A stretch of DNA of 64,000 nucleotides from Escherichia coli O157:H7 (GTDB lineage: Bacteria; Pseudomonadota; Gammaproteobacteria; Enterobacterales; Enterobacteriaceae). The position numbers are program-made. The stretch is from NCBI RefSeq assembly GCF_013167455.1, contig NZ_CP038328.1, one strand, 5' to 3'. Shown in pieces: positions 30,801 to 33,800 of this stretch (the first letter of the stretch is position 1; every line of letters starts with the position of its first letter).

Positions 30801-33800
30801 ATGCGCGACAGGGCAAAAAGTCGCATCCGTTTGTTGCCGTCAACTGCGGGGCGATTGCCGAATCGCTGCTGGAAGCGGAGCTGTTTGGCTATGAGGAAGG
30901 GGCGTTTACCGGCTCGCGACGCGGAGGTCGCGCCGGGCTGTTCGAAATTGCCCACGGTGGCACGCTGTTTCTGGATGAGATTGGCGAAATGCCGCTACCT
31001 TTGCAGACTCGCCTGTTACGGGTGCTGGAAGAAAAAGAGGTCACCCGCGTCGGCGGGCATCAGCCTGTTCCGGTAGATGTACGGGTCATTAGCGCCACTC
31101 ACTGCAATCTGGAAGAAGATATGCGGCAAGGGCAGTTTCGCCGTGATCTGTTTTATCGGCTGAGTATTTTGCGTCTGCAATTGCCACCACTGCGCGAGCG
31201 GGTGGCAGATATTCTTCCGCTGGCGGAAAGCTTTTTGAAAGTGTCTCTGGCGGCGCTCTCCGCCCCATTTTCTGCCGCATTACGCCAGGGATTACAGGCA
31301 AGCGAAACCGTGCTGGTGCACTACGACTGGCCAGGTAATATTCGTGAACTGCGCAATATGATGGAGCGACTGGCGCTATTTTTAAGTGTGGAACCGACGC
31401 CGGATTTAACGCCGCAGTTTTTGCAGCTGCTACTGCCGGAACTGGCGCGCGAGTCGGCGAAAATTCCCGCTCCACGCTTGCTGACACCACAACAGGCACT
31501 GGAGAAATTTAATGGCGATAAAACAGCAGCGGCGAATTATTTAGGCATCAGCCGGACGACGTTCTGGCGGCGGCTGAAAAGCTGAACTGCCGAATGCAGC
31601 GCGAACGCTTTATCCGGCATAAATTTCAATAGATGATCACCGATAAACTTACGCATCGGGGATGTTTACATAGGATTCAGAATTACTTCTTCTTATAAAT
31701 ATCCGCCGTGCCGTGGATCTTATTGTCAGTTTGACCGGAGGTCAGTACCAACACATCAGCCCCTTTTTCATCGGCTTTTTTGATTAAATCTTCTTTTGCA
31801 TCTGCAGTCGACATTTCATTACTGGTTGAAATATCACCTATTTTTTCATACTGCGATTCAACTTTTTCAAATTCCGCTTTGGTCATCAATTCAGCGGCAT
31901 AGACATTGGTAACGGCAAACGCTAACGCACCGACTAACATTTTAGAGATTATTTTCATATTACGGCTCCAGAGTTGTTATCACACTATCACCCACCGACA
32001 TTATTGGGTTGATTAATAATTAGTTCAGTCAGGGCATAAACGCCAGTAACCGGAAATAAGACACTTTGTGATCTCTCTCGCACCCGATTATTTTTGGTAG
32101 AAATATGATGCAGTTAGTTCACTTATTTATGGATGAAATCACTATGGATCCTTTGCATGCCGTTTACCTGACCGTAGGACTGTTCGTGATTACTTTTTTT
32201 AATCCGGGAGCCAATCTTTTTGTGGTAGTACAAACCAGCCTGGCTTCCGGTCGACGCGCAGGAGTGCTGACCGGACTGGGCGTGGCGCTGGGCGATGCAT
32301 TTTATTCCGGGTTGGGTTTGTTTGGTCTTGCAACGCTAATTACGCAGTGTGAGGAGATTTTTTCGCTTATCAGAATCGTCGGCGGCGCTTATCTCTTATG
32401 GTTTGCGTGGTGCAGCATGCGCCGCCAGTCAACACCGCAAATGAGCACACTACAACAACCGATTAACGCCCCCTGGTATGTCTTTTTTCGCCGTGGATTA
32501 ATTACCGATCTCTCTAACCCACAAACCGTTTTATTTTTTATTAGTATTTTCTCAGTAACATTAAATGCCGAAACACCAACATGGGCACGTTTAATGGCCT
32601 GGGCGGGGATTGTGCTCGCATCAATTATCTGGCGAGTTTTTCTTAGTCAGGCGTTTTCTTTGCCCGCTGTGCGTCGTGCTTATGGGCGTATGCAACGCGT
32701 TGCCAGTCGGGTTATTGGTGCAATTATTGGTGTATTCGCGCTACGCCTGATTTACGAAGGGGTGACGCAGCGGTGAGCAGATAATTTACTCTCTACGTAA
32801 TCAACCTGATTTGCCGAATCCCGACCATCGGCGATGATAGCCCCCGTAATGCGTGGTCCTTATTTCCGATAAGTTTACTTGAGTCTTTAGCTTCCCATTT
32901 CAGCCCACTCTCCCCTGTGTGGGCTTTTTTCATTGGTCTGACCCGTCCTGAATAGCCAAACAATGGCAATGTTCCACTTTGCAGGGATGATAATAAGGGG
33001 ATCTAATTCAGAAGAGTTTTGAAAAGTTGGACCGCCATCGGGGCCTCGAACCCCGTACCATACAACAATCCTGGTTGTCGTCTGCTCTTCCTGATGAGCT
33101 AATGGCGGTTTTTGATATGAGCCTTACAGCATATTTTCTGTCAGGCTTGAGTGCGATGCGTAAGATACAGAAAAGACCCCACACAAACATGATGGAATTA
33201 TGATTTTTTTCATATGAATGTCAACCCACACATTCACAAAACATCTGCATGAGATCATTTTTTTTTATACACCGCATGGCTGCGAAACCACTACTGGTGC
33301 TTTTTTAAGCGAAGTGTCGCCGATCACAACAAAATATCGGCGAAAAAAGAGATGGAATGCCAGTTGGCATACAGATATACAGATGAAATGATTACCTGCA
33401 TTGCGATTCACTCTCAGGTAGAATAACAACTTGCAGGTGGAACCCTTTCTGAACTAAAGAGTGTAGCGGATTTTAACGTGCTTATTTACAGGATAATATC
33501 TGTCACCTAATTCCTGGACTCTATTAGATATCCCTTCATTTAATCGTGCATCATCTCTGTATGTTTTTACGTCCAGAACAGAGAGCAATAACATCACCAG
33601 TGATTCAGGAAAAACAGGGTAGATATTTTTTAAGTGTAATAATAATCCATGCGCAAGCGCCTGCTTAATGGGCGCGTCTGTCTCCGGAATAGACGACATT
33701 TCGCGAAGCCATTTTTCCACATGCATACACTCTTTCCCTTTAGGGAAAAGTCTCAGCAAAGGCATATGGTGTTCAAGAAGAATACATTTGCAATCTGTTC

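Follow-up and report, generated by a model that had tools for sequence, protein, structure and literature searches.

What is the cloverleaf-like sequence that lies between yahN and yahL in Escherichia coli O157:H7: a tRNA gene, what is left of one, or a tRNA-like sequence put to another use? The question was raised by an earlier note on a 64-kb stretch of contig NZ_CP038328.1 (the window, within which all positions are numbered unless K-12 is named), which saw a tRNA-like element on the minus strand, took it for a degenerate tRNA, an integration-site remnant or a tRNA-like RNA, and held the only open reading frame (ORF) overlapping it, 33008..33190, to be probably spurious. Very probably, two statements hold together: the element is a real tRNA look-alike, a domesticated chromosomal copy of a gene of the argN (tRNA-Arg) family of lambdoid and Shiga toxin (Stx) phages, and it is the tRNA-like sequence of the leaderless xtpA mRNA known from K-12. 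Element and host gene were published in 2022 and are present in the K-12 annotation, so that neither is new. What is added here is that the genus conserves the tRNA-like nucleotides and not the peptide as a whole, which bears on the interpretation of the published phenotype concerning the small RNA (sRNA) GcvB.

Layout, fold and phage relatives of the element

ARAGORN reported a single tRNA-like gene in the 64 kb, an 81-nt element at 33028..33108 on the minus strand, under the label tRNA-Ser(gga); on 40 dinucleotide shuffles of the window (2.56 Mb) it made zero calls. Read 5' to 3', the element is made of the acceptor 5' strand CCGCCAU (33102-33108), UA, the D arm GCUC-AUCAGGAA-GAGC (33084-33099), a single A, the four nucleotides GACG, the stem-loop ACAAC-CAGGAUU-GUUGU, AUGGUA, the T arm CGGGG-UUCGAGG-CCCCG (33039-33055), the acceptor 3' strand AUGGCGG (33032-33038), U73 (33031) and an encoded CCA (33028-33030). 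The upper half has a 7-bp acceptor stem, a 4-bp D stem with G18 and G19, and a 5-bp T stem with a UUCGA loop (U54, U55, C56). In the anticodon arm, GACG stands as four extra nt before the stem, and the loop CAGGAUU carries A33 and U37 (no U33, no purine 37). The aberrant lower hairpin occupies 33062-33081. Position, strand and layout as read in the earlier note (7-bp acceptor, canonical D and T arms, CCA, four extra nt, CAGGAUU loop) were borne out both by ARAGORN and by our reading of the sequence. The note's interval was one base longer than that of ARAGORN because the A at 33109 can pair with U73.

Since its anticodon arm is replaced by a non-canonical hairpin, the element cannot decode. 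The descriptions 'degenerate tRNA' and 'tRNA-like RNA' agree with what is found, i.e. intact acceptor, D and T arms, a non-decoding anticodon arm and homology to phage tRNA-Arg. With RNAfold, the cloverleaf was both the minimum free energy (MFE) structure and the centroid of the isolated element (-32 kcal/mol, z = -2.96), and it was also predicted within the MFE fold of the full 183-nt ORF. In both folds the lower hairpin takes a register of 7 bp, ACGACAA/UUGUUGU, closing a 6-nt loop. An alternative register is possible because the stem is built of a 3-nt periodic ACGACAAC/GUUGUUGU motif.

The Rfam tRNA model (RF00005) did not match the element, neither at the gathering threshold (29 bits) nor at E≤10, in slices of 601 and 106 nt, whereas the controls argN (55.9 bits) and ileZ and argO (68-72 bits) were recognised. 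The weak Rfam matches obtained (the T arm of mascRNA at 13.6 bits, a snoRNA and the L31 leader) all covered the T-arm hairpin only. No transfer-messenger RNA (tmRNA) was reported by ARAGORN, which also searches for it, nor by Rfam. The Infernal/Rfam check proposed in the earlier note thus came out without a tRNA match. The note would have abandoned its reading had there been neither a covariance-model match nor any tRNA similarity, with the stems explained as a REP-like (repetitive extragenic palindromic) repeat. This is not what we observed, as homology to phage tRNA-Arg is clear even though the covariance model fails.

A BLAST search against phages and plasmids detected relatives with 73-84% identity over 82-88 nt, with E values down to 5e-17. 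Annotated argN genes of Stx2 phages gave 73-74% identity over 88 nt. The closest relatives (82-84%) are unannotated elements that take the place of argN in phages phiP27 and mEp460 and in an IncY phage-plasmid, the one in phiP27 sitting between ileZ and argO, upstream of stx2e. Core E. coli tRNAs did not match the element, and K-12-type genomes hold it at a single place. In the alignments, what the element has in common with the phage family is the acceptor stem, U73, CCA, D stem and T arm, to the exclusion of the anticodon arm and the variable region. The homologous stretch extends from 8-11 nt before the tRNA 5' end to the CCA, where it breaks off exactly; a search for further phage-derived sequence in the spacer gave no homology outside the tRNA unit.

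The reference member of this family, argN, is a tRNA-Arg(UCG) belonging to the ileZ-argN-argO cluster upstream of stx in Stx and lambdoid phages. The two acceptor stems are near-identical (CCGCCAU/AUGGCGG), and a similar short 5' spacer is present in both. However, argN has a normal anticodon arm, CCAGC-CUUCGAA-GCUGG, where the element has a 28-nt aberrant lower half unrelated to it and lacking an Arg anticodon in a normal arm, and the D loop is of 8 nt in the element and 9 nt in argN. Unlike argN, the element is served by a promoter of its own, forms codons of an ORF and is not part of a prophage: its neighbours are yahN, yahL, yahK and prpR, not the ileZ and argO found downstream of Q in a prophage. 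The phiP27, mEp460 and IncY elements are closer: their lower half also begins with 'AGACGAC...', their D loop is of 8 nt as well, and neither ARAGORN nor Rfam recognises them as tRNA. They differ in being part of a phage tRNA cluster of the late region, with no promoter or ORF of their own, a lost T loop and a variable poly-G run. More generally, the phage family includes Arg, Lys-like and Gln-like lower halves, several of them with non-canonical loops.

A scan of IMG/VR revealed relatives on at least 120 phage contigs, the commonest being devoid of the T loop and varying in their poly-G run; to judge from these sequences, the commonest relatives are plainly decaying pseudogenes. The lower half of the chromosomal element had 0 matches in IMG/VR, and it is absent from the 120 phage relatives. 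Homogenisation of the chromosomal copies by a mobile donor was considered, and is ruled out by these two results.

Within the phage family, a clade of 74-nt relatives (phage contigs L021, L027, L028, L100 and L132, and a Cedecea neteri plasmid, L011:603-676) has retained the upper half together with the ACAAC/GUUGU stem. Its loop is always of 6 nt, C[AU][CU][AG]GU, and several variants share it, which is odd for simple decay. The one copy checked, that of the Cedecea plasmid, comes immediately after an ileZ-like tRNA and is given by ARAGORN as 'tRNA-???', its anticodon being of 2 nt. The relative on the IncY phage-plasmid (NZ_CP091840.1, 56073-56161; L012:601-688) is annotated 'tRNA-OTHER' by the NCBI annotation pipeline, PGAP. 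No tRNA was annotated by PGAP at the chromosomal element among the E. coli records listed (thousands of genomes). PGAP therefore treats close relatives unequally, the plasmid copy being 'tRNA-OTHER' and the chromosomal element unannotated in these records.

The xtpA reading frame and its transcript

The ORF that runs through the element (33008..33190, minus strand) has 60 codons and a stop, its ATG being at 33188-33190, and the element forms its codons 28-55, hence residues 28-55 of the product. It was retrieved from our ORF list and from the annotation of K-12 MG1655, where its counterpart is xtpA (b4845, 345252-345434), a 'putative transcriptional regulator XtpA' that overlaps yahM. The translation is identical between O157 and K-12, so the suspicion that this ORF was spurious did not survive the comparison. 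In UniRef, the exact O157 sequence is named 'Putative transcriptional regulator XtpA' and is found in at least 1000 contigs. XtpA gave no Pfam or NCBIfam match.

XtpA is presented in the RegulonDB v12 paper as a small protein newly added, and is attributed there to Muto et al. 2022, a work that, by its title, concerns a leaderless mRNA including a tRNA-like sequence, whose encoded peptide regulates the expression of the GcvB sRNA. It is on the strength of this work that XtpA entered the K-12 annotation. The three features of the title were all reproduced here: a tRNA-like sequence, its location within a 60-codon ORF, and an ATG at the predicted transcription start. The K-12 gene (Muto et al. 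2022) also shares with the O157 one the yahL/yahN locus, the 60-aa product and the promoter-ATG geometry. The differences are one base of the element (C in O157, U in K-12, at 33041), a stop at codon 12 of the O157 yahM frame, and the annotation itself: RefSeq O157 records do not contain xtpA, and the only feature between yahN and yahL is a 70-aa 'hypothetical protein' (32793..33002). Published knowledge on xtpA has thus not been carried over to the O157 annotation.

A promoter scan detected a putative, near-consensus sigma-70 promoter, TTGACA-16 nt-CATAAT (11/12 matches), at 33197..33224 on the minus strand, 82 nt upstream of the element and conserved in all Escherichia lineages compared. The A of the ATG (33190) lies 7 nt downstream of the end of its -10 hexamer, a placement from which the xtpA transcript is predicted to be leaderless. 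The 'yahM 5' UTR' primer of Adams et al. 2021 starts at ATGTTTGTGTGG (ATGTTTG), which is the xtpA ATG. Just upstream of the element, the MFE fold of the full ORF contains a 5' hairpin at 33120..33147 (minus strand), of the AAGCCUGACAG...CUGUAAGGCUU type, with 10 pairs and one mismatch. Evidence for it is weak: a G-C pair is compensated to A-U in E. albertii and the mismatch is repaired in Escherichia sp. E1V33, but new mismatches appear in other lineages. The deletion of xtpA is reported to affect aminoglycoside sensitivity, and its tRNA-like sequence reportedly resembles an arginine tRNA of a phage or an island.

Term-seq data (Adams et al. 2021) list a single 3' end of this strand in the stretch from yahL to prpR, at K-12 position 345390(+), which is backed by ~4300 reads from two conditions and has a Rho score of 1.85, the entry 'Yes' for a significant region of Rho termination, and 1.28 as its score for an intrinsic terminator. 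Transcription of the locus therefore proceeds on the tRNA-like strand. The equivalent position in the window, 33052 (minus strand), is nt 57 of the element; it lies 10 nt beyond the lower hairpin, within the 5' strand of the T stem. At the CCA end (K-12 345414; 34540x-34542x) no 3' end is listed by Adams et al. 2021, although charged or rare species could be missed. With an end at nt 57 and none at the CCA, the element appears to behave as part of an mRNA, and a matured RNA of tRNA size has left no sign in these data. The end at 33052 may result from exonuclease trimming back to the hairpin, or from an endonuclease cut.

Other RNAs combine tRNA-like and further parts. In tmRNA (SsrA), described by the same research group, a tRNA-like and a coding part are also found in one RNA, but there the 5' and 3' ends together make up the tRNA-like domain, which receives alanine by virtue of G3:U70 and serves trans-translation. 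In the xtpA transcript the unit is internal, has G3-C70 and is itself translated. The mascRNA of MALAT1 and the tRNAs of the tufB operon are tRNA-like units of longer transcripts, from which they are cut out by RNase P. The element shares with them a cloverleaf-like upper half embedded in a longer transcript but, unlike them, has its mapped 3' end inside the unit and none at the CCA, so that excision is without support.

A direct contact between the xtpA transcript and GcvB was also considered, since in the lower hairpin the CA-rich strand resembles a target of GcvB R1 and the GU-rich strand resembles R1 itself. With RNAduplex, pairing of the two RNAs was no better than for shuffled sequences (50% of the shuffles were as good), and the idea was dropped.

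Conservation of the 81 nt and competing explanations

To situate the element in the genus, an exact 19-mer scan was made on one genome per species, a procedure that more diverged orthologues outside Escherichia would escape. It detected the element in Escherichia only, and protein searches likewise detected XtpA relatives in Escherichia only. About 95% of complete E. coli genomes have the locus. The alignment comprised 8 sequences, which represent 6 lineages: O157, K-12, three E. albertii, Escherichia sp. E1V33, MOD1-EC5350 and the divergent E. coli SCPM-O-B-8794. Within the element 1 of 81 columns is variable. The 5' part of the ORF has 25 variable columns of 82, the stretch immediately following the CCA 29 of 40, and the DNA upstream of the promoter 71 of 100. 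If the element varied as much as the 5' part, the binomial probability of at most one variable column in 81 would be ~6e-12, a figure that treats columns as independent and ignores shared ancestry. The sole variable column, 33041 (minus strand), is C in O157 and U elsewhere, and exchanges a G-C for a G-U pair in the T stem; the change is synonymous at Pro50.

Outside the element, the ORF diverges by 12-20%, and the flanks by 12-60%. The proportion of synonymous differences (pS) is 0-0.05 in the element and 0.17-0.35 outside it (codons 1-27). The C-terminal tail of XtpA past the CCA differs in every lineage, whereas the promoter, the ATG and a frame free of indels are retained in all those compared. 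The XtpA variants listed within E. coli follow the same trend: outside the element they affect residues 3, 9, 15, 16, 19, 21, 27, 56 and 59, and within residues 28-55 there are three only, namely S54Y, one single-codon deletion, and P50L. The latter, in strain CH4799, is a C-to-U change that retains a G-U pair. Such extreme conservation suggests, at the level of sequence comparison, that selection acts on the tRNA-like nucleotides and not only on the peptide. As the 81 nt are invariant and the rest of the ORF is not, the element likely also works at the RNA level, either as a cis module or as a tRNA mimic.

The identification itself is firm: a phage gene of the argN family was captured in the chromosome, its tRNA lost the anticodon arm, and its sequence now supplies codons 28-55 of a leaderless ORF. 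The predicted sigma-70 promoter places the transcription start at the A of the ATG, and the 60-codon ORF crosses the element. In addition, the element may form a cis-acting, structured RNA module of this transcript that mimics a tRNA, with possible effects on transcript stability, Rho access or ribosome passage, or through the binding of tRNA-handling proteins. This role at the RNA level would add to the coding, in E. coli, of the basic C-terminal half of XtpA. The locus is a tidy example of a phage tRNA gene captured, deprived of its anticodon arm and read as codons.

Several observations weigh against this explanation. Covariation lends the fold little support: across 15 members of the family, 94% of cells are paired, yet the only compensatory pair (7:66, C-G versus U-A) does not exceed what shuffles give, and the predicted fold is based on homology and conservation instead. 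The most abundant RNA, of 139 nt, lacks half of the T arm and the 3' acceptor strand, and since its 3' end is at nt 57 it cannot form the cloverleaf. The fairly common S54Y allele (126 contigs) implies a change of C74 to A that destroys the encoded CCA, which is therefore not inviolable. On the side of the peptide, the full-length XtpA ORF is not conserved: at codon 4, E. coli has TGG and E1V33 has AAG, but the three E. albertii, E. coli SCPM-O-B-8794 and MOD1-EC5350 have TAG. In codons 1-27 the ratio of nonsynonymous to synonymous differences (pN/pS) is 0.4-1.06, and this value, together with the lack of any Pfam or NCBIfam match, means that a function of the peptide only fits the comparative data poorly. 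For the role of the peptide itself, the sources used here are the K-12 annotation and the title of Muto et al. 2022.

A stronger reading shifts the weight from peptide to RNA. The selected product could be a tRNA-like RNA with its own promoter and a 5' leader, the ORF of E. coli being recent (codon 4 changed from TAG to TGG), and the phenotypes ascribed to the peptide could be effects of the RNA. The 81 nt, synonymous sites included, are invariant even where codon 4 is a stop. TAG is found in 3 of 5 non-identical lineages and both TGG and AAG are one step away from it, so that it would be the parsimonious ancestor. The tail encoded past the CCA varies by lineage, the CH4799 change keeps a base pair at the cost of making Pro50 a Leu, and the promoter is present in all lineages, as are the ATG and a frame without indels. 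On the other hand, the published title names the peptide as the regulator, Term-seq gives no CCA end and a major 3' end that interrupts the cloverleaf, neither a partner nor a mechanism is known, our crude duplex test with GcvB stayed at shuffle level, and the sample was of six lineages only. We regard such an RNA product as a serious possibility, but lean somewhat to the other side. Were it true, a domesticated phage tRNA would have been kept nucleotide-for-nucleotide across Escherichia as a tRNA mimic with its own promoter, and a protein-coding sequence born from a tRNA gene would be documented.

The remaining explanations deny the element a function or give it another one. A decaying phage tRNA pseudogene, overlapping an ORF by chance, would agree with the state of the phage-borne relatives, which lose the UUCGA T loop, vary in poly-G length and go uncalled by ARAGORN and Rfam. 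Yet the chromosomal copy has canonical D and T loops and is invariant across species whose flanks differ widely, beyond what the binomial estimate allows by chance, and IMG/VR contains no identical mobile donor that could have homogenised it; we consider such a neutral relic very improbable. As for the integration-site remnant of the earlier note, here taken as a tRNA copy (attB, attL or attR) that an island or prophage would have left behind, the variable flanks, the fall of homology right after the CCA and the different upstream genes of different lineages could be taken in its favour. Against it, homology covers a whole tRNA and not a 3' fragment, the 64-kb window contains no second tRNA (ARAGORN) that could be the parent, no integrase is found among the 11 annotated neighbours (within ~4 kb), the break seen in E. 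coli is at ~33440, upstream of the promoter and not at the CCA, and attachment sites are not expected to stay invariant under selection. The K-12 prophage-end fragments ptwF, pauD and pawZ illustrate what such remnants look like: they are 3' fragments duplicated by integration, beside an integrase-bearing prophage. The element is, like them, a tRNA-derived, non-functional and phage-linked chromosomal sequence, but it is full length and no prophage surrounds it. An integration remnant is therefore very improbable. That the element is a functional, decoding tRNA-Ser(GGA) is suggested by the ARAGORN label and by the intact acceptor, D and T arms with an encoded CCA, but the 7-nt register of the loop has A33 and U37, that of the MFE has 6 nt, four extra nt precede the stem, and the long variable arm that a tRNA-Ser needs is absent. 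Neither Rfam, nor Term-seq with its missing mature 3' end, nor PGAP in the listed genomes supports a tRNA, and we give this possibility practically no weight. A chance set of palindromes or a REP-like repeat has nothing in its favour beyond the presence of stems. It is contradicted by the single copy in K-12-type genomes, by homology to tRNA genes at the E values reported above and by the absence of ARAGORN calls in shuffles, and the arrays that Rfam assigns to naRNA4 lie elsewhere in the window; it can virtually be dismissed.

Surroundings of xtpA

The 1.4 kb around the element are 100% identical to many E. coli O157:H7 chromosomes. The flanking genes are yahN (32105-32776, plus strand) and yahL (33454-34269, minus strand), so that the location given in the earlier note, the yahN-yahL spacer, is correct for this O157-type genome. 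YahL gave nothing in Pfam or NCBIfam except one sub-threshold match. In K-12, a further frame, yahM, is annotated, equivalent to 32793..33038 on the minus strand; its ATG belongs to the AUGGCGG 3' acceptor strand of the element. Codon 12 of this frame is TAG in O157 (33003-33005) and CAG in K-12, no family match was found for it in Pfam or NCBIfam, and the sequence that comes after the CCA could not be aligned with E. albertii or E1V33. As an ORF, yahM seems doubtful or lineage-specific.

A hotspot of gene replacement lies upstream of the xtpA promoter (loci L007, L010, L136 and L138). In ~1100 complete E. coli genomes, including ATCC 11775, homology ends at ~33440 and yahL is absent. Other genes found upstream are a yahJ-like amidohydrolase gene in E. 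albertii strains (L136/L137), yahK in E1V33 and an SNF2 helicase gene in MOD1-EC5350. In loci with called genes, the downstream neighbour is the LysE/yahN gene.

Two further features of the window were recorded. REP-type Rfam naRNA4 (RF02564) arrays are present at 23396-24035 (minus strand, six copies) and at 43486-43833 (plus strand, four copies), with scores of 65-78 bits, and have no relation to the tRNA-like element. Beside yahK, from ~37565 onward on the minus strand, a sugar ABC transporter ATP-binding gene is a pseudogene with an internal stop, a call taken from the annotation of an identical strain in an O157-type record (L001:9166-9401).

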